15,444 nucleotides of DNA from the IMG/VR virus record IMGVR_UViG_2531839585_000009, one strand, 5' to 3'. Both the position numbers and the translations under genes were made by a program. Shown one piece after another: positions 4,157 through 12,380 of this stretch (the first letter of the stretch is position 1; every line of letters begins with the position of its first letter). The DNA comes from a virus (taxonomy: Duplodnaviria > Heunggongvirae > Uroviricota > Caudoviricetes). Below the pieces are notes generated by a model. It saw only the letters and a list, made by a program, of their open reading frames with translations. It ran no database searches and had not been told where the DNA came from.

Positions 4157-7100
4157 TACCGATATGCTCCACTTAACCGACCACCATCACGGGCCTGCTG
4201 TTGCATAAAGTCCGCTGCCGCTTTTTTCCCAAGGTCATAAACCACCTTCAGGGCAGCCGGACCTATCTGCCCGTTCGTGCCATCGTTATTGATCTCGATG
4301 TTGTACTGCGGGGAAACATCGCCATACCTGACCCCAATATCCGCCACAACCCCCAGCTTACCGTCAGCACCACGACGCAGTGGCAGAATGGCTTCAGGTC
4401 CAGCTTCCCCCATCACACCCGCGCCTTTTGCAAAAGCAAAAAACGTCGGACGGTTAACCACCGTGCCACTGTAGCGACTCAAATCAGCCGACTGATAAAC
4501 ACCGCCATCAGCATTGGCTACAAAATCAAAAGGCAGCGCGGAAGCAATACCTTTTACCGCTTTCATTAAAGCTATCTGAGCCATGATTCTGGACATATCT
4601 GACAGCACAGAAGAGGTGAAGGATTTGAAATTGAGTTTGCCTGTAGTACAGAATGTCGCCAGCCAGTCACTCATGCTACTGAACGCAGACGTGAACAACT
4701 GTTCCACTGTCCCGGCTGTGTTATCCGCTTTCTCAGTGACATTCTGGAGTGCACGCAGGACTCCGTTTTTCCAGTTACCCTGCACAACTTCAAGCTGTTG
4801 CCAATAACGGCGATTCTCATTCAGTTGTCGGTTCAGGCTCTCCGTCAGCGCCTGCTCGGCCTTTCTGTAGTCATCCGTGTTATATGTCCCTTTCTGCTCA
4901 CTATCCCGCCTCAACTGCTCCAGCTGTTGCTGGTATTTCTGGCGAAGACTCAGTTGTACCTGATATCGCTGTCGCTGCTGATCACCCATACCCACCGTGG
5001 CGATATCCAGGTCATGTTGCTGACGCTGAGCGCGCTCTTCTTCAGCCAGTTGACTGGTCAGCTGAATTGTTTTTTTCTTCAGATCGTTGAGTGCCGTCTG
5101 TTTCTGAAGCTCCTGCTGTTTTACATCCAGCAGCGTCAGTGCCTGAATCAGTTCATCTTTACGGGCCAGCACACTCTTTTCATCTGCCGTCAGTTTTTTC
5201 CCGTCCAGATCGCTGATGCGCTGCTGCAGAGCCAGAAGCTGTTTATGCGCTTCTGTCATCCTTCGTGGCAATGCCTGCTGACTGTCTGCAGCAGCAATCT
5301 GTCCTTCCACCTGTGCCTGTTGCTGACTGTACTGCAGCAATAACCGGGTGGCCTCATCATTACGGGTTTCGCGTGTTTTTTTCTTACCGGATGCCAGGGC
5401 TTTCTCGTAACGTTCATTTTCACGTTGTATCGCCGCATCCCTGACAGCCTGATCGGCGTACTGCATGGCATTAATACGCGCAATTTCACGCTGATGTCGT
5501 GCTGCTTCCGTTTCATTCATCCGGTTCAGTGCAGCATTTTCAGCATTACGGCGTTTCTGTTGCTCCTGATAATTCCGCTCTGCCTGCTCTTTTGCATCCT
5601 GCAAATCCTTCTGGCGTTTTTTCTCCTGAAGCTCGTTAAGACGCTGCTGATCGTACTCAACCTGAGAAGATGATGCCGTCCAGGGGAGTCTTTTCGCCCG
5701 CGACACTTTCTCCTGTAAAGCGGCAATCTGTTCATCCAGCGAGTCTTCACGACCAATATTCATGGCCGCATCCCAGAAACGACTCCACAAATCAGACAGA
5801 TACTTCAGCGTACTGCCAAGCGCATTGAGGTTATTATCAATATCCGCAGTACGCCGACCGGTTTCCTCTGCCAGTGCAGACATGGCTATCCGTGCAGCAT
5901 CACTGGACCGCCCCTGCTCCCCAAGGACGCGTATCTGCTCAAGCTGAGTGGCAGTAAGAAAATGCAGCTCATTGTCCAGAGCCTTCGCGGCATTTACAGG
6001 ATCATCCTTCAGCCGCTTAAACTGATTTATGGTATCGCTGACCGACTGGCCAACCGATCGCTCCATCTGTGCGGCAACTCTCGCCACCATACCGATATCG
6101 TTTCCACGAAATGCACCACTCCCCACCACCTGAGCCAGCGCACCGGCTGCAGCATGTTGCGTGATACCATTCCCGGAAATAGCACGACTGAGCGTCCACA
6201 GCTGCCCGGCAGTGACTCCGGCATAATGCCCCGTCAGCGACAGCTGGCGGTTAAATTCTTCCCCCTCCTTCTGACCGTCATACCAGGCTTTACCCAGACC
6301 ATAGACAGCCGCGGCAATACCGCCAATAACCCCGCCAAGCATCATGCCTTTCGGTGACATCAATGTGTCTATCCACCCGGCACGGTTAGCCAGCGTTATT
6401 CCGGATCCCCTCAGCGCACCTAAATTGCCGCGGGCCAGTTCACCTATCAGAACGCCTATCTCCTGACGGGCCGCTGCACTTTTCAGACCCAGCGAATGCG
6501 TTGCTTTTCCTGCCTGCTCCATTTTGCGGATATACACTTCTGCAGCACTGCTTACCCCCAGCTGGGCAGCCTTAGCACGAAGCAACTCAGAAGAAGAAAG
6601 ATTCTGGCGGGTTGCCTGCTCTTTAAGCTGACGGATAAACGCCACTTTCTGTCGGGTAGCCTCTTCCTCAGCCTGTGTAAGAACACGGGTTTTCGCCGTA
6701 ACCTCAGAAATCAGCGCCAGATAATCCTGCTGACCAATCCCGCCACTGTTTCTGGCCTGTCGGATCTGCTGCTGAATACGCTGTAATTCCTGCAGCCCCG
6801 CACTGGCCTGTTTCACACTGTCAATCTGACGATAAAACGCAGCAGCCGCTTTATCCTGAGCCTCTGCCAGAGCCATGGCCTGCGCCTGTTCATCGCGCAT
6901 TTTCTGGCTCAGCGCCTCCATGCGCTGGCGGGTTTTCTCCACCTCGCGGGCCATGCGTTCATGAGCCTGTGCGTTCTTCTCCACCGTCTGCGCATGGACG
7001 GATGCGGCTGTTGCAGCCGAAGAAGCTGCCTGCGTTGTCTGCCGGGCGGCCTGAGTCTGACGCTCCATAAAACGCTGCATACGGGCAGAAGACCGTTCTG

Positions 7101-7206: not shown

Positions 7207-7905
7207 AACGCACACCTCCGGAAATACCTTCTCCAAGATGCATCAGTTCTTCGTCCGTTCGCTCCGGTATCCCGTTCTCTTCCGGTAAAAGGCTGAAATC
7301 AGCCACCGCAGCATCACTGCTGCCGGACACCATTCTCACGATCAATGCCTTCAGCGAGGCAAACTGCGCATCCATCCACACATCACTGAAGCTCTGCATC
7401 CGGAAATAATCGCCCCACTCACCAAGCTCAGTGGCCGACATTTCCGACAGCATCCGCCGCCAGTCTGCCCGCCGGAACTCCCGGGCAAGCCGCATGACAA
7501 ACTGCATTTCCCGCGTCAGGACTTTTCCGGCGTCAGCACCTCATGCTCCAAATCCCCGGCATTCTCAATGGCTCCCATACCGCTCAGCGACAGAACCATC
7601 TCCGCCCCCGCTCCCAGGGCATCATACGACCATGTTGTAATAACGGATGCGCAAAGCGTCTCAACATCCTGAGACTGTTCCGCATTCCACAGTGAGCGGG
7701 AAACCAGCCAGGCATTGATATCCATCCCCATCCGCAGAAAAGCAATCTGTCGTTCAGCCTCCGGCAGTTCTCCCTCTTCGGCATCAAACTTTGCCGTTCG
7801 CTGCTGAACAAACGCCAGATATTCAATTCTCTGCAGCCCGGACAGCTCACTGAGCACCACGGACTGTTTTTCATAATTAAACGTGCCCTGTTTCAGAAAC
7901 ATCAT
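7178..7905 (-). CDS. GT: Tail assembly chaperone G-T fusion, predicted to be made by programmed -1 ribosomal frameshifting near the 3' end of G
   Basis: The -1 frame relative to G opens at a TGA only about 10 codons before the G stop and continues for about 115 codons (..AGKVLTREMQFVMRLAREF...GPDSQPGH-stop at 7178); the candidate shift site GGAAAAG (7521..7527) sits 2 codons before the G stop, the same arrangement as lambda G/T. No independent strong RBS for T. Confidence 0.6.
7516..7905 (-). CDS. G: Tail assembly chaperone G (lambda gpG family)
   Basis: ATG-ATG at 7905/7902 preceded by GGTGGAG; MMFLKQGTFNYEKQSVVLSELSGLQRIEYLA resembles lambda gpG (MFLK...LSELSALQRIEHLA); ends ...LTPEKS-stop (TGA 7516..7518); position between V and H. 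Confidence 0.85.
   Translation of the reverse strand: MMFLKQGTFNYEKQSVVLSELSGLQRIEYLAFVQQRTAKFDAEEGELPEAERQIAFLRMGMDINAWLVSRSLWNAEQSQDVETLCASVITTWSYDALGAGAEMVLSLSGMGAIENAGDLEHEVLTPEKS
7521..7527 (-). other. Candidate -1 frameshift slippery heptamer GGAAAAG (one-base variant of the lambda G GGA AAG site)
   Basis: Zero-frame codons CCG GAA AAG TCC TGA; -1 frame GCC GGA AAA GTC...; A-site slip AAG to AAA is canonical, P-site re-pairing GAA to GGA is imperfect. Confidence 0.45.
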
Positions 7906-7918
7906 GTTCTCCACCTGC

Positions 7919-7942
7919 AAAAAAGCCCCGGATAACCGGGGC
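7919..7942 (-). terminator. Intrinsic (rho-independent) terminator immediately downstream of major tail protein gene V
   Basis: Minus-strand reading GCCCCGG-TTAT-CCGGGGC followed by TTTTTT: perfect 7-bp GC-rich stem, 4-nt loop, 6-U tract; lies in the 57-nt gap between the V stop (7963) and the G start (7905). Confidence 0.75.
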
Positions 7943-8712: not shown

Positions 8713-9126
8713 TTAATTCGTGTACGTGATCTGGTACGTGATTTCCGCCATCGCCCAGGTGGCCATCTCATTATCACGTTGATAGTTAAAACCGAGTGGG
8801 ATCAGGGTGTCGATGAGTCCGGAAAGTGCCGGTATATCATTCAGGGCCGGGAAAATGGTGCTCTCCATCCACATATCCAGCTCTGAATCCGGTGCCTGTG
8901 CCCGGATGAAGACAGCAATATGCAGAACAGCCTGCCAGTCATCTTCATCCGTCATTTTTCCGGTGTACTGAGCATCACTCAGCCACACTGCCACGGCAGG
9001 CAGTTCCTGCGCATCAACAAATGCCGGAAGCCCGTCAAAAAACGTGGCGCTGTCTCCACACTGTTCCCGAAGGCGTGCTAGTACGGCCTGGCGGATTTGT
9101 GTATGTCGGTTCATCGGGTCAGCCAT
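8713..9126 (-). CDS. U: Tail terminator protein U (lambda gpU family)
   Basis: Intact ORF; ...ATFFDGLPAFVDAQELPAVAVWLSDAQYTGK...WQAVLHIAVFIRAQAPDSELDMWMESTIFPALNDIPALSGLIDTL...YQITYTN aligns with lambda gpU (ATFFDGRPAVFDEADFPAVAVYLTGAEYTGE...PDSELDAWMESRIYPVMSDIPALSDLITSM...YVITYEM). Start could be ATG 9126 or ATG 9114. Confidence 0.85.
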   Translation of the reverse strand: MADPMNRHTQIRQAVLARLREQCGDSATFFDGLPAFVDAQELPAVAVWLSDAQYTGKMTDEDDWQAVLHIAVFIRAQAPDSELDMWMESTIFPALNDIPALSGLIDTLIPLGFNYQRDNEMATWAMAEITYQITYTN

Positions 9127-9689
9127 AACCTCAGTTGTTGTTTCAGTGCATACCCCAGCTGTTTCGGCATTTCCGCAGCAATAATGCGGTCGCGGGCATC
9201 TTCAAATGCTTGTGTCAGCGGTCCGGACAGCGGGACTTTCACCACATCAATGGGGTAACGATTTTTGCCATCAATACGCCGCATCACATGCCAGCGACCA
9301 TTCGCCAGTTGCTGAATAAACGCATCCCGGAAAAGATATTTACCCACCTTCAGCACACTGCCACGGTACTGCAGTTTTCCACCACGCCGGGCCAGTCTGA
9401 CCCGGGCTGTCCCCAGCTTAATAGCGGGCAGATTGCCCCGGTTAACGCGGATCCTGGCCGTCATTTTTCCTGACGGACTGGCTTTAAACACCCGGACACG
9501 CTGACGTACCAGTTTCAGGGGGATCCCTTTCACCTGGTTATCTCCCGCAACGGTATTCCCGGCAACCTGCCGGGTGGCGACCGAGACCGCTTTCTGTGCC
9601 ACACGGTTTATCGCCCATGCGCTGGCCTGTGGCACCATACGGGTATCAAGGCTGTTCAGATTACGGATGGCATTCTCAAGCCCCTTCAT
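9111..9689 (-). CDS. Z: Tail completion protein Z (lambda gpZ-like by position and size, 192 aa)
   Basis: Intact 192-aa ORF, ATG 9689 preceded by AGAGGTG; basic, Arg-rich; sits between the FII-like gene and U exactly as lambda Z does and overlaps U by 16 nt. Identity is inferred mainly from synteny and length. Confidence 0.7.
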   Translation of the reverse strand: MKGLENAIRNLNSLDTRMVPQASAWAINRVAQKAVSVATRQVAGNTVAGDNQVKGIPLKLVRQRVRVFKASPSGKMTARIRVNRGNLPAIKLGTARVRLARRGGKLQYRGSVLKVGKYLFRDAFIQQLANGRWHVMRRIDGKNRYPIDVVKVPLSGPLTQAFEDARDRIIAAEMPKQLGYALKQQLRLWLTR

Positions 9690-9700
9690 CCCACACCTCT

Positions 9701-9976
9701 TTACTCAATAAAGATCATTGGCTTACCGTTAAAGCGTTCATGCCGTGTGACCGTCCATTGTTGTCCGTCATAAACAACGCGATCCCCGCGCCGTGGGCGG
9801 TATCCCGAAGAAAACACCACCAGAGATACCGCAGGTCCGGACAGAGCATTCAGCTCTGCCAGTGTTTCTCCCGGGATCACAGTCATATCGGCATCATTAA
9901 TCGAGGCTGTCTTTCCCATCTTTCTGACCGTGATCGCATCCATACGCGCTGCCAGCCGGGAAAAGGGATCAGACAT
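9701..9976 (-). CDS. Head-tail joining protein (lambda gpFII-like)
   Basis: Intact 91-aa ORF; PFSRLAARMDAITVRKMGKTASI...VSLVVFSSGYRPRRGDRVVYDGQQWTVTRHE parallels lambda FII (...AIARADETIRGYMGTSATI...PSLFVRTDEVRQLRRGDTLTIGEENFWVDRV); overlaps the upstream gene by 8 nt. Confidence 0.6.
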   Translation of the reverse strand: MSDPFSRLAARMDAITVRKMGKTASINDADMTVIPGETLAELNALSGPAVSLVVFSSGYRPRRGDRVVYDGQQWTVTRHERFNGKPMIFIE

Positions 9977-10292
9977 TGAGTTTTACCGGCACTTCTTCTG
10001 CACTGGTTCCGGCATCTGCCCAGACAACCCCGACCAGCGGATCAGAGCCGCTGTTAGTCAGCTGAACTTTTCCGGACTTCAGATAAACCTTCTTACCCGT
10101 TTTCATGTCATCCGTTTTCAGCTTAGGCAGCATAAACACACCTTCGGTCATGCCGTCGCCTGTTTCACCCTGTGGAATATCGGTCAGCGCCACCGCAAAA
10201 ACATCACCCACCTGCACCAGATCTCCGCTGCTGATGGCTGCACTGGCAACAATCGCCACCGTTTTTCCTTCTTCTACAAAATTCTTTGCCAT
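9969..10292 (-). CDS. DUF2190-like small phage head protein (possible decoration/cement protein)
   Basis: Start most likely ATG 10292 (MAKNFVEEGKTVAIVASAAISSGDLVQVGDVFAVALTDIPQGETGDGMTEGVFMLPK...KVYLKSGKVQLT..) with GGAGA 6 nt upstream; the ORF-track extension to 10337 would run through the terminator hairpin. Family assignment is from memory of the motif pattern, not a search. Confidence 0.5.
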   Translation of the reverse strand: MAKNFVEEGKTVAIVASAAISSGDLVQVGDVFAVALTDIPQGETGDGMTEGVFMLPKLKTDDMKTGKKVYLKSGKVQLTNSGSDPLVGVVWADAGTSAEEVPVKLNV

Positions 10293-10305
10293 AACTGTCT
10301 CCGCA

Positions 10306-10324
10306 CAGCCCCGTTCAGGGGCTG
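10306..10324 (-). other. Second stem-loop abutting the Shine-Dalgarno sequence of the DUF2190-like gene
   Basis: Plus-strand CAGCCCC-GTTCA-GGGGCTG (7-bp perfect stem); on the minus strand it ends 3 nt before the GGAGA RBS; no U-tract follows. Confidence 0.4.
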
Positions 10325-10335
10325 ATTTCAGGTAC

Positions 10336-10355
10336 AAAAAAAGCCCTTACGGGCC
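10336..10355 (-). terminator. Intrinsic terminator immediately downstream of the protease/capsid gene
   Basis: Minus-strand reading GGCCC-GTAA-GGGC followed by TTTTTTT: GC stem with GNRA-type tetraloop and a 7-U tract, 23 nt after the capsid stop codon (10379..10381). Confidence 0.7.
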
Positions 10356-10378
10356 ATCAGAGTTGTTGTCTGCGACGT

Positions 10379-12334
10379 TTACGCCGTACATTTCACCAGA
10401 CCGCGGTGATCAACTGGCGCGACACCGGCGTCAATACGCACTTTCGTTGTCACGCCATCCACACTGAAGCCCTCCATCTGATCAATATATGGCGTATCCA
10501 CACCGTTGAGATAAGCCACTTCAATCGTATCGGAGCCTTTTGACGCAGCCAGGTAGAAGGTGGTCAGGCTGTTATCATCAAGACGAGGCTCTGCAATAAC
10601 GGTCGCAAAATCTTTCACCGGGTTAATAATACCGGCGTTAATGTCAGCCCCCTTGACACTTGAGGAGCGAATGACCTGGTTAGCAACAGACTCCATCGCC
10701 GTCGGTACCAGTACGAACGCAGGACGAATATTCAGATGACGCTCCCCCTCTTTCTGAACGCGCATCAACTGGCGGGCTTTATCCAGCGATGCCACGTCCA
10801 TTGCAGCGCTCTCCAGTACGTTTGCATGTTTCGCTTTATCGAACAGACTTACATTATCTGTGGAGATTTTCGGGTTAGACGTCAGAATGGCATAAACCAG
10901 ATCGGCAATAGTGGATTTCGCCGCACGGCCCAGCTTCATCGGGACATCGGTCAGCATATTCAGATCATCATTGATAATGGCCTGACGGGTGATACTGAAC
11001 AGCTCGCCATAGGTCGCCAGTGCAATAGTGGCCTGTTTATCTCCGGTGGTGACGTATTTATATTCCGCCCCTTCACGCACCTGACGCAGAGCACTGAAGC
11101 CCCCCATACCCACACGATGGGCAATTTTAAAATCAGACAACTGACCTTTCCGCGTCCACTGTTCATAGGTTTCAGGGGCATCTTCCCAGCCCTGCAGAAT
11201 GGCTTTGTTCGCAACATCCAGCAGAATATTACCGAAGTCAGACGTACTGTGTGTGAACGCCGCACCGACCATCTGCATCGGGTTATAACTGGAAACCCCA
11301 ATACCCCGTTCAGTCAGTGACATACGGGCATATTCACGCAGGGTCATCCCGTTGTAGACATTATCACGTTCGGTTTTTTCAAATCCGGCACGCGCCATCA
11401 GCGCCTGGCGGATCCCGTCCCCCACAAAATTACCGTTACCGGCATAAATATGAGCCGGGGTATTTTTATTGGATGGCGTGGACTCGCGCCCCATCTCGTT
11501 CAACAGCTTTTCGCGGGCCTGCTCCAGCGAACATTCAGGATCGGCAAGACACTGAGCCTGCAGCGTCTGATAACGCCCGCCAAACATGGCAAACAGATCA
11601 TTAATACCGTTTACACGCGCTTTTTGCTCTGCCAGTACCTGCGCACGGATACTGTTTTCATCCACCACGGGTGCTGCTGCCTGCACTGGCGTCCGGGAAG
11701 CTGCAGGTTCATTATCCTGTACGCGTGGAGCACTGTTGCGTGGCGGAGTAATCATGTTTCGAATGGATTCCGGCATCTTTTTAAATTCCTCTGTACGTTT
11801 TGACTGAATACATGCCATTGCCTTAACGGCTGGCGTCACCTGATCAGCAAATCCCTGTGCCAGACATTCGGCACCGGACATCCAGGTCTCATCCGCCAGC
11901 ATGGCAGCAATTTCATCGGTGGTTTTCCCGGTTTTCTGTGCATAAGCGGGTAACAGAACCGCCTCAACTTATCGAGCAGGTCGGCATAGGTGCGCATGTC
12001 CTCCGCATCACCGCCCGTAAAGCCAAATGGTTTATGAATCATCATGAAGGTGTTTTCCGGCATAATGACCGGTTTCCCACCATCGCAATGACCGACGCCA
12101 TTGAGCCGCCACACCGTCGACATAAACGGTAATGGACGCACCATGTGTTTTCAGCGCATTAAAAATGGCGATGCCTTCAAAGACATCGCCACCCGGTGAA
12201 TTGATATGGAGATTAATGTGGGTGATATCGCCCAGTGCATTCAGATCACTGATAAACTGCTTCGCTGTAACCCCCCAGAAACCAATCTCGTCATAAATAT
12301 AAATATCCGCGTCACTCTGGTGACCAGCCTGCAT
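10379..12334 (-). pseudogene. Fused prohead protease (ClpP / S14-like) - linker - major capsid protein (HK97-fold); protease part broken by at least 3 single-base deletions, capsid part (507 codons, 10379..11902) intact
   Basis: Protease pieces: DIYIYDEIGFWGV...INSPGGDVFEGIAIFNALKTHGASITVYVDGVAA (ORF 12032..12439), then SMASVIAM in the third frame (catalytic Ser context), then GKPVIMPENTFMMIHKPFGFTGGDAEDMRTYADLLDKL (ORF 11836..12144; MIHxP His motif), then the capsid frame from EAVLLPAYAQKTGKTTDEIAAMLADETW onward. Putative start ATG 12334 (weak RBS, uncertain). Confidence 0.8.
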
Positions 12335-12380
12335 CCTGAACCAGGAATTATTCTTCGGACTGGTCGTCGGTGTACTGCGG

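Follow-up and report, generated by a model that had tools for sequence, protein, structure and literature searches.

Why would the late (virion) operon of a lambdoid phage carry a terminator-like hairpin, and directly after it a second hairpin, between the gene for its capsid protein and the gene for the protein that decorates the capsid? We addressed this question in a 15,444-nucleotide stretch of DNA (IMG/VR record IMGVR_UViG_2531839585_000009, Caudoviricetes; hereafter the window), which is ~98% identical to the lambdoid phage mEp460 and carries all of its genes on the minus strand. The capsid and decoration genes are separated, from stop to start, by a spacer of 86 nt, and the spacer region is 99–100% identical to cdtI, Ayreon and many prophages. 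An original prediction, made from the letters of the window, had described here a canonical terminator that would favour high capsid transcript levels, followed by a perfect 7-bp stem-loop that could occlude or time translation of the next gene or protect a processed 5′ end. Comparison with relatives leads us to favour, by a modest degree, a reading in which the spacer punctuates the late operon of Gifsy-2/mEp460-type lambdoid phages with a conserved element of two parts.

Anatomy of the spacer and sampling of relatives

Re-reading of the sequence placed every predicted element exactly at its coordinates on the minus strand. From the capsid stop codon to the decoration start codon, the spacer is organized as follows.

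10381..10379, minus strand: stop codon TAA of the capsid gene
10356..10378, minus strand: non-conserved stretch from the stop to the terminator, 23 nt here and 20–31 nt in relatives
10342..10355, minus strand: terminator hairpin T, G-GCCC-GUAA-GGGC-U, with four G-C pairs (10354..10351 with 10346..10343) and an optional G.U pair
10336..10342, minus strand: U7 tract of the terminator (A7 on the plus strand)
10325..10335, minus strand: AU-rich single-stranded linker GUACCUGAAAU, family consensus AUACCUGAAAUC
10306..10324, minus strand: hairpin H2, CAGCCCC-UGAAC-GGGGCUG, a perfect 7-bp stem with a 5-nt loop
10290..10305, minus strand: decoration-gene initiation region, with UGC (10305..10303), GGAG (10302..10299), ACAGUU (10298..10293) and AUG (10292..10290)

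Structure prediction, which the original prediction had proposed as a check, agreed with this layout: RNAfold of the 116-nt region formed both hairpins at −36 kcal/mol (z = −2.06).

Relatives of the spacer were gathered with the decoration protein as bait from phage records, viral contigs and one genome per species, covering Escherichia, Salmonella, Citrobacter, Pseudocitrobacter, Enterobacter, Klebsiella, Kluyvera, Pluralibacter, Yersinia, Pantoea, Edwardsiella, Sodalis, Rahnella, Proteus, Morganella and Providencia. The resulting enterobacterial family set comprised 64 distinct sequences, and conservation of the terminator was read from an alignment of 61 distinct relatives. The 64 sequences have a common layout, namely GCCC-N4-GGGC, a U tract, the linker, a hairpin of 6–10 bp, 0–3 nt (in 59 of them), GGAG and the start codon, and the same layout is found in Fels-1, Gifsy-2, mEp213, a Providencia phage, relatives of Stx phages and prophages of 14 enterobacterial genera. 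The decoration proteins of prophages that share it are only 41–66% identical, and the 60 nt of coding sequence on either flank have mean pairwise identities of 0.54 and 0.61, with 0.43 at third codon positions.

A probable terminator with an invariant stem follows the capsid gene

The first hairpin has the sequence hallmarks of an intrinsic terminator, a G+C-rich stem-loop with a U tract directly 3′ of it, downstream of a stop codon. It was recovered by a consensus scan of the window, in which the pattern GCCC-N4-GGGC-U6 occurs once and in none of 200 shuffles, and the opposite (plus) strand of the hairpin has no U tract. A rho-independent terminator is annotated at the same site in the records of mEp460 (6334..6353), Ayreon (6325..6359) and mEp213 (6294..6312). 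The stem is unvarying in the 61 aligned relatives, with 15 different tetraloops above it (mean pairwise identity 0.99 for the stem and 0.52, near-neutral, for the loop), and the U tract has seven residues in 63 of the 64 sequences and eight in the remaining one (L036). Since the stem never varies within the enterobacterial family, no covariation could be counted for it. The hairpin begins 23 nt past the stop codon here and 20–31 nt past it in 62 relatives; with a gap of at least 20 nt, a terminating ribosome would therefore not cover it.

We consider it likely, with good confidence, that this hairpin functions as a terminator. As a prediction, the terminator is supported by its annotation in three relatives, by the invariant stem and U7, by unrelated hairpins with U tracts at the same place in distant relatives and, indirectly, by a drop of expression at this position in Gifsy-2 (see below), but the word canonical overstated its strength. 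Because the stem has 4–5 bp and the late operon is one with a Q-type antiterminator (mEp460 encodes such a late regulator), a leaky or conditional stop is likelier than a firm one.

The window holds a second, stronger terminator after the major tail gene (7942..7925, minus strand; GCCCCGG-UUAU-CCGGGGC plus U6, seven G-C pairs; the whole element spans 7919-7942), which is also annotated in mEp460 (8751..8774) and Ayreon. Directly after it come GGUGGAG and the tail-chaperone AUG, with no second hairpin. With one terminator past the capsid gene and another past the major tail gene, the gene of each abundant virion protein therefore has a terminator after it. The mEp460 record has a third rho-independent terminator (9389..9406), inside the gene of tail assembly protein T (approximately window 7290-7310).

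The second hairpin is conserved in structure and free in sequence

In the window by itself H2 does not stand out: perfect 7-bp hairpins number nine, where shuffles give 5.6 ± 2.6, and those with at least six G/C number three, where shuffles give 0.7. Since this single-sequence count is not beyond chance, H2 must be argued from relatives. A plain MAFFT alignment left H2 out of register, and two rounds of covariance-model alignment were used instead. In the latter, 86% of the cells of the 7-bp helix are paired, with two-sided changes at five of the seven pairs (41 cells); the covariation score is 0.244 against 0.118 ± 0.009, a value reached by none of 500 shuffles, and it falls to at most 0.123 when partners are slid by 1–3 columns.

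Because a covariance alignment is fitted to the structure, each sequence was also folded alone. Among the 64 sequences this gave 57 distinct H2 hairpin strings with 25 different stem cores (including CAGCCCC, CCGGCAC, CCGGCUU, CUGGCUC, CCGGUGC, GGCCUCUC, CAGGCUUC and CGCCCC) and a mean energy of −13.3 kcal/mol, and the H2 region was stabler than 95% of its dinucleotide shuffles in 62 of the 64 (median z = −3.65). At individual stem positions, A-U, C-G, G-C and U-A are all seen across relatives. Thus, the sequence of H2 varies freely while its pairing is kept, which argues for selection on RNA structure and not on DNA identity, and these comparative data make it highly probable that H2 is a functional RNA structure. 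Rfam 15 gave no match at gathering thresholds in the whole window and none at E ≤ 10 in 10150..10550, and neither H2 nor the linker is annotated in the phage records examined.

In two E. coli-type viral contigs (L155, 3625-3693; L242, 167-235) the top of H2 is inverted, from CCCCUGAACGGGG to CCCCGUUCAGGGGG, with the stem retained and the loop reversed, which resembles the product of a DNA inversion spanning the palindrome.

H2 lies beside the Shine-Dalgarno sequence

In the window H2 ends 3 nt (UGC) before the ribosome-binding site (RBS), as had been noted from the sequence, and its 3′ foot is 0–3 nt from the Shine-Dalgarno (SD) sequence in 59 of the 64 relatives, with the SD and the AUG never inside the hairpin. 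The SD is GGAG in 60 sequences and GAGG in four, mostly 5–7 nt from the start codon. Because H2 never contains the SD, it would not block the ribosome.

The minimum-energy fold of the window has extra CUG/CGG and UUGU/ACAG pairs around H2, which touch the first two G of GGAG. The predicted probability of SD-linker pairing is 0.47 in the window, with a mean of 0.13 over the 64 relatives, and the preferred partner of the SD shifts among relatives between the linker, the 3′ end of the capsid gene and downstream sequence. A conserved SD-sequestering helix was thus rejected for want of a consistent partner. The earlier proposal that H2 occludes the RBS is not supported: in none of the 64 relatives is the SD part of the helix, it has no consistent partner, and in-silico disruption of H2 changes its accessibility little.

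The linker is conserved in sequence

The linker, by comparison, is kept at the level of its letters, with a mean pairwise identity of 0.80 versus 0.43 at third codon positions of the flanking genes; positions 2, 5, 6, 8 and 9 of the consensus are identical in at least 62 of 64 sequences. Linker and U tract together are 83% A+U, and an RNase-E-like R-N-W-U-Y motif is found in 47 of the 64 linkers versus 27 ± 3.7 in shuffled linkers.

Part of the linker motif also recurs in distant relatives of the decoration gene (L243-L322), whose last 45 nt upstream of the decoration-gene start contain CUGA in 12 of 43 cases versus 4.9 ± 2.0 in shuffles, and CUGAA in 6 of 43 versus 1.1 ± 1.0, among sequences that are not independent. 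The CUGA(A) of these distant phages, which lack a second hairpin, often stands just 5′ of the SD (e.g. CCUGAAAGGA, UCUGAAAGGAG). In the enterobacterial version, folding of H2 would place the linker CCUGAAA beside the SD.

A related string, GGGC-U7-AU(A/G)CCU(A/G)AA, also occurs after unrelated terminators, for example before tape-measure genes, and often directly before an RBS. Contigs with U7-AURCCURAA elsewhere include L130, L133, L146, L174, L185, L203 and others, in a scan that was selected by pattern and allows no claim of enrichment.

Expression changes at the terminator in a Gifsy-2 lysogen

Published RNA-seq of S. Typhimurium 14028s, a Gifsy-2 lysogen, bears on the terminator. In Table S1 of that report, Rockhopper calls a "Transcription Stop" where the capsid gene STM14_1173 ends, and in the same table the normalised expression of this gene is 23/16 and 22/21 in two experiments, that of the decoration gene STM14_1174 is 5/6 and 5/6, and that of the next four genes is 8–17 (PMC5013294). 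By these values, which are low counts from uninduced lysogens, expression drops ~4-fold from capsid to decoration gene (from ~22 to ~5), coinciding with the position of the terminator. In the same report, the genes STM14_1174-1178 (decoration to major tail gene) are described as strongly regulated on overexpression of HilA, apart from the capsid gene, and as correlating in their expression profiles with genes of Salmonella pathogenicity island 1 (SPI-1); as given there, chromatin immunoprecipitation (ChIP) of HilA failed and the claim of direct regulation was made by exclusion only (PMC5013294). The ends of the STM14_1174-1178 block match the two terminators described above.

The spacer in more distant phages

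Environmental viral contigs supplied 42 distinct capsid-decoration spacers from more distant relatives of the decoration gene, and 30 of these have a predicted fold at ≤ −8 kcal/mol. As a rule, then, phages of the wide family have a structured element following the capsid gene, and the two-hairpin version belongs to the enterobacterial branch. By eye, approximately 12 of these spacers have a hairpin plus U tract with unrelated stems such as CCGCCGG/CCGGCGG, GGCCGCC/GGCGGCC and GCCCCGG/CCGGGGC, and approximately 18 have hairpins without a U tract, mostly in G+C-rich genomes. Distant relatives in which an unrelated stem with U tract takes this place include L039, L041, L243, L251, L253, L254, L259, L272 and L306.

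Two Morganella psychrotolerans sequences (L035 and L038, ~770-1500) carry a gene for a PemK/MazF-type toxin (Pfam E = 2e-19) between the capsid and decoration genes, with an 81-aa open reading frame (ORF) just 5′ of it. This insert has its own longer terminator in place of GCCC/GGGC, the linker AUGCCUGAAAAU is retained and H2 is gone. The toxin gene looks like a moron inserted exactly at the capsid-decoration junction.

Flanking genes and state of the window

The original prediction assigned the genes on either side correctly. One refinement applies, as judged from Pfam and PHROG: the ORF upstream represents the C-terminal portion of a gene in which protease, scaffold and capsid are fused.

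10379..12337, minus strand: tripartite ClpP-protease / scaffold / major-capsid gene, homologue of mEp460_005 (652 aa)
9969..10292, minus strand: head decoration / cement protein gene, 107 aa (Pfam Phage_cement_2, E = 9e-21; PHROG 122 'head decoration', E = 2e-47)

A single 652-aa protease-scaffold-capsid gene is typical of Gifsy-2-like head modules. In the window this gene is disrupted by three 1-nt deletions and an in-frame stop (12034..12032), which leaves a 507-aa ORF as the C-terminal part of the fusion (Pfam Phage_capsid_4, E = 1e-54, residues 209-504) and an N-terminal piece that matches Pfam CLP_protease; among PHROGs it matches 133 and 4523, with 'major head and protease protein' as annotation. 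At its 3′ end the decoration gene runs into the beginning of the following gene (9976..9701). The PDB, searched by sequence with the decoration protein, yielded no relative.

Relative to mEp460, the window has ~35 gap positions between 3950 and 15150, nearly all of them 1-base deletions and clustered, which disrupt the frames of the portal (for example 13524, 13522, 13496, 13492), the capsid protease domain (12105, 12073, 11971), the major tail gene (8644-8598) and the tape measure (5289-4314). They reflect either draft-quality sequence or a decaying prophage, and 10290..10381 is free of them.

Other identities considered for the spacer

Several known kinds of element were compared with the spacer and rejected. 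Among small RNAs (sRNAs), the only one reported from a prophage of the mEp460 type is the 193-nt sRNA-17 (PMC7719688), and the window lacks both of its published end primers even with up to 3 mismatches allowed. The enterohaemorrhagic E. coli (EHEC) prophage sRNAs AgvB, AsxR and HnrS have been placed between late promoter and lysis genes, or at other sites, and not at this spacer. An Hfq-dependent sRNA derived from the 3′ untranslated region would have no seed, the 20–31 nt before the terminator not being conserved. Alternative GCCC/GGGC pairing between the two hairpins is possible in the window, but H2 stems of the Gifsy-2 type (CCGGCAC) are incapable of it, and it is thus not conserved.

The first G of a sigma-54-like GG-N10-GC over the terminator is not conserved, and for an antisense terminator or promoter on the plus strand there is no U tract and the −35 region is variable. 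A −1 frameshift signal (U7, spacer and hairpin) is contradicted by the position of U7, 20–31 nt past the stop and at a distance that is no fixed multiple of three; in Gifsy-2 the zero frame meets further stops before U7. A mini-ORF, MARKGFFCT, or read-through of the stop to an in-frame UGA of the linker is confined to the lineage of the window.

A lambda-type nut site was likewise rejected on the 15 different tetraloops, the non-conserved 20–31 nt upstream and the location in the virion operon. The boxB hairpin of lambda nut is GCCCUGAAAAAGGGC, and the spacer resembles it in the letters of the GCCC/GGGC stem, in a GNRA-type loop in 32 of the 64 sequences and in the linker CCUGAAA, a substring of boxB; unlike boxB, it has a variable tetraloop in place of a conserved pentaloop, no boxA, a late-operon location and U7 after the hairpin. 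We take the resemblance to be superficial.

A model of two-part punctuation

How, then, might the two hairpins act together? In lambda, the decoration protein gpD has a stoichiometry of ~1:1 with the capsid protein. In the Gifsy-2 capsid a trimeric decoration protein sits on each 3-fold axis (PMC8538268), and on both grounds the decoration protein would be needed at ~1:1 with capsid protein. A consensus scan found no sigma-70-like promoter on the gene strand from the spacer to the tail genes; head-completion and tail genes would therefore need transcription that reads through the spacer.

In the model that we favour, GCCC-N4-GGGC with U7 would be a minimal intrinsic terminator at least 20 nt past the capsid stop. 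It would be leaky or conditional, ending part of the transcripts and chiefly those of polymerase that is not Q-modified, as in the lysogen, and partial termination would leave more message for the capsid gene than for the genes beyond. Read-through RNA would bear the AU-rich linker and H2, for which two non-exclusive roles can be envisaged. H2 might fix the local fold, so that GGAG and the start codon lie just 3′ of a closed helix near an AU-rich single-stranded landing stretch, which would give efficient, context-independent translation of the decoration protein at ~1:1 with capsid protein despite scarcer mRNA. Alternatively or in addition, after an RNase E cut in the linker, H2 might become a protective 5′-terminal stem-loop. 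That H2 plays one or both of these roles we regard as evenly balanced.

A number of points weigh against the model. The relatives are phylogenetically related and shuffle statistics overstate their independence. The terminator hairpin, at −6.7 kcal/mol for its 4-bp stem and −8.3 once the G.U pair is counted, ranks among the shortest and weakest within the known range, and in lambdoid phages a Q-modified polymerase is expected to ignore such a terminator, which may have little effect in lytic growth. Its position before, and not after, a gene whose product is needed in capsid-equal amounts is awkward, and the Gifsy-2 expression values come from low counts in uninduced lysogens. The predicted accessibility of the SD is 0.41 in the native sequence, 0.52 with the 5′ arm of H2 mutated and 0.38 with H2 deleted; H2 thus brings no improvement, and these modelled values give a clear sign of neither occlusion nor insulation. 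Only 11 of the 64 linkers contain RNWUU, the strict RNase E consensus, and the strong conservation of the linker sequence is explained by neither proposed role of H2. More generally, the model does not account for the invariant stem letters, the exact U7, the linker CCUGAAA or the enrichment of CUGA(A) in distant relatives.

Weighing of other explanations

Some of the same observations would suit a processing module, in which RNase E cleavage of the linker is the main event, the terminator hairpin protects the capsid message at its 3′ end and H2, then 0–4 nt from the new 5′ end, protects the downstream one, giving segments with differing half-lives. This overlaps with the second role of H2 above, and it agrees with the layout of hairpin, AU-rich single strand and hairpin, with the excess of R-N-W-U-Y motifs in the linkers and with the approximately 18 distant relatives that have, by eye, a GC-rich hairpin without U tract in the same spacer; a hairpin of that kind would be no classical terminator but possibly a decay barrier. 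However, 3′ exonucleases are little hindered by a 4-bp stem, a decay barrier would not need an invariant U7, the strict RNWUU is infrequent and mEp213-type linkers (GAAACC) lack the key U. In RNA-seq, the Gifsy-2 genes STM1034-1038 act as one block distinct from the capsid gene (PMC5013294), which fits processing, and we keep processing as a tentative alternative, clearly less probable than punctuation. Another explanation is an internal start, that is, a promoter in the spacer with a transcript from near H2 through the major tail gene, insulated by the terminator from upstream transcription. The HilA response and SPI-1 correlation of STM14_1174-1178, separate from the capsid gene (PMC5013294), the coincidence of the ends of this unit with the two terminators and the conservation of the linker at sequence level, as would suit a DNA signal, all point that way. 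Yet sigma-70-like −10/−35 elements were not found in the spacer of the window or of Gifsy-2, no linker hexamer has A at position 2 with T at 6 (the window has G at the key A), and in the RNA-seq study Rockhopper called no transcription start there, ChIP of HilA was unsuccessful and the listing of psp genes beside this unit points to indirect effects (PMC5013294); we judge an internal start improbable. Slightly less doubtful, although still unlikely, is a broader reading in which the mini-terminator, the CCUGAAA linker and H2 form one family-specific RNA/DNA signal that launches a separate RNA, by initiation or by cleavage at H2, from the decoration to the major tail gene and ending at the second terminator; in Salmonella it would be wired to HilA, giving expression in the lysogen that is independent of the rest of the late operon.

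Two further explanations would leave H2 either inert or repressive. It could be that only a generic terminator acts here, and that H2 and the linker persist as a recombination "boundary sequence" of head modules or through recent common descent. Lambdoid head modules are mosaic, the MazF-type toxin moron of the Morganella prophages lies exactly at the junction with the linker retained, and the inverted H2 top of some E. coli variants is a DNA-level event. Against this, the coding flanks have diverged to 54–61% identity (43% at third positions) while the terminator stem is kept at 99% and the linker at 80%, and the sequence of H2 changes freely with its pairing kept, so that we find this explanation very unlikely. 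Lowest of all we rate translational occlusion or timing, in which H2, or a longer helix over it, hides the decoration-gene RBS until it is opened. The fold of the window lends itself to this, with pairs that touch the first two G of GGAG and its SD-linker pairing probability of 0.47, but over the relatives that probability is low with a varying partner, the SD and AUG never lie within H2, and disruption of H2 in silico alters SD accessibility little and in no consistent direction. Repression would also be unexpected for a protein needed in capsid-equal amounts, as the Gifsy-2 capsid structure suggests (PMC8538268).

Relation to known systems

The punctuation that we favour has counterparts. 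Phage T7 has its T-phi terminator after gene 10. In the late operon of the P22-like phage L, a terminator is predicted at the end of the procapsid module, and its authors call late-operon terminators common, with roles unknown, proposing partial termination or the stopping of transcripts from polymerase unmodified by the antiterminator (PMC8022706). As in T7 and phage L, a stem-loop with U tract here follows the gene of the most abundant head protein in a late operon that needs read-through; unlike theirs, the mEp460-type stem is unusually short, invariant in sequence (GCCC/GGGC) across genera and coupled, with constant spacing, to a second conserved hairpin and a conserved linker.

In E. coli, rplKAJL-rpoBC has an attenuator and a processing site, and the papBA transcript is processed by RNase E, with the downstream segment of pap being the stable one. 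The spacer is like these in that a partial terminator and/or an endonuclease site between cistrons would set differing levels within an operon, with the abundant structural subunit on the more abundant or stable RNA; it differs in that ends are mapped and efficiencies measured there, whereas the spacer is known from sequence.

Protective 5′ hairpins such as that of ompA act only at the very 5′ end of an RNA, and RiboJ-type parts use a hairpin just before the RBS as an insulator. With both, H2 shares a stable hairpin a few nt 5′ of a single-stranded SD with AU-rich single strand ahead of it, but predicted accessibility shows no clear insulating effect of H2. Intercistronic decay-barrier hairpins are found in the Rhodobacter puf operon and in the malE-malF REP element, and the spacers of distant G+C-rich relatives similarly hold GC-rich hairpins without U tract after a highly expressed cistron; unlike these, the enterobacterial version adds a perfect U7 and its first hairpin is much weaker.

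Significance

What is already known here is the annotation of the terminator, and terminators that follow a major capsid gene inside an operon are a familiar class. What is new is the conserved H2 and linker, an intercistronic element that is neither annotated in the records examined nor matched in Rfam. The whole is neat rather than surprising, a fairly ordinary piece of operon punctuation, and the practical gain would be small: several hundred prophages could be annotated better, and the spacer would offer a compact natural part that combines terminator and RBS.

Its main value would be as a test case for the purpose of late-operon terminators, which is openly described as unknown (PMC8022706), because it combines a minimal terminator kept letter for letter over 14 genera, a hairpin kept in structure and a downstream gene whose product has to equal the capsid protein in quantity. 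In mEp460 or Gifsy-2 it could reveal whether termination, RNA decay or translation is the basis of the protein ratios. If the host-regulated Gifsy-2 unit hinted at by the RNA-seq data is real and is bounded by both terminators, it would matter more.

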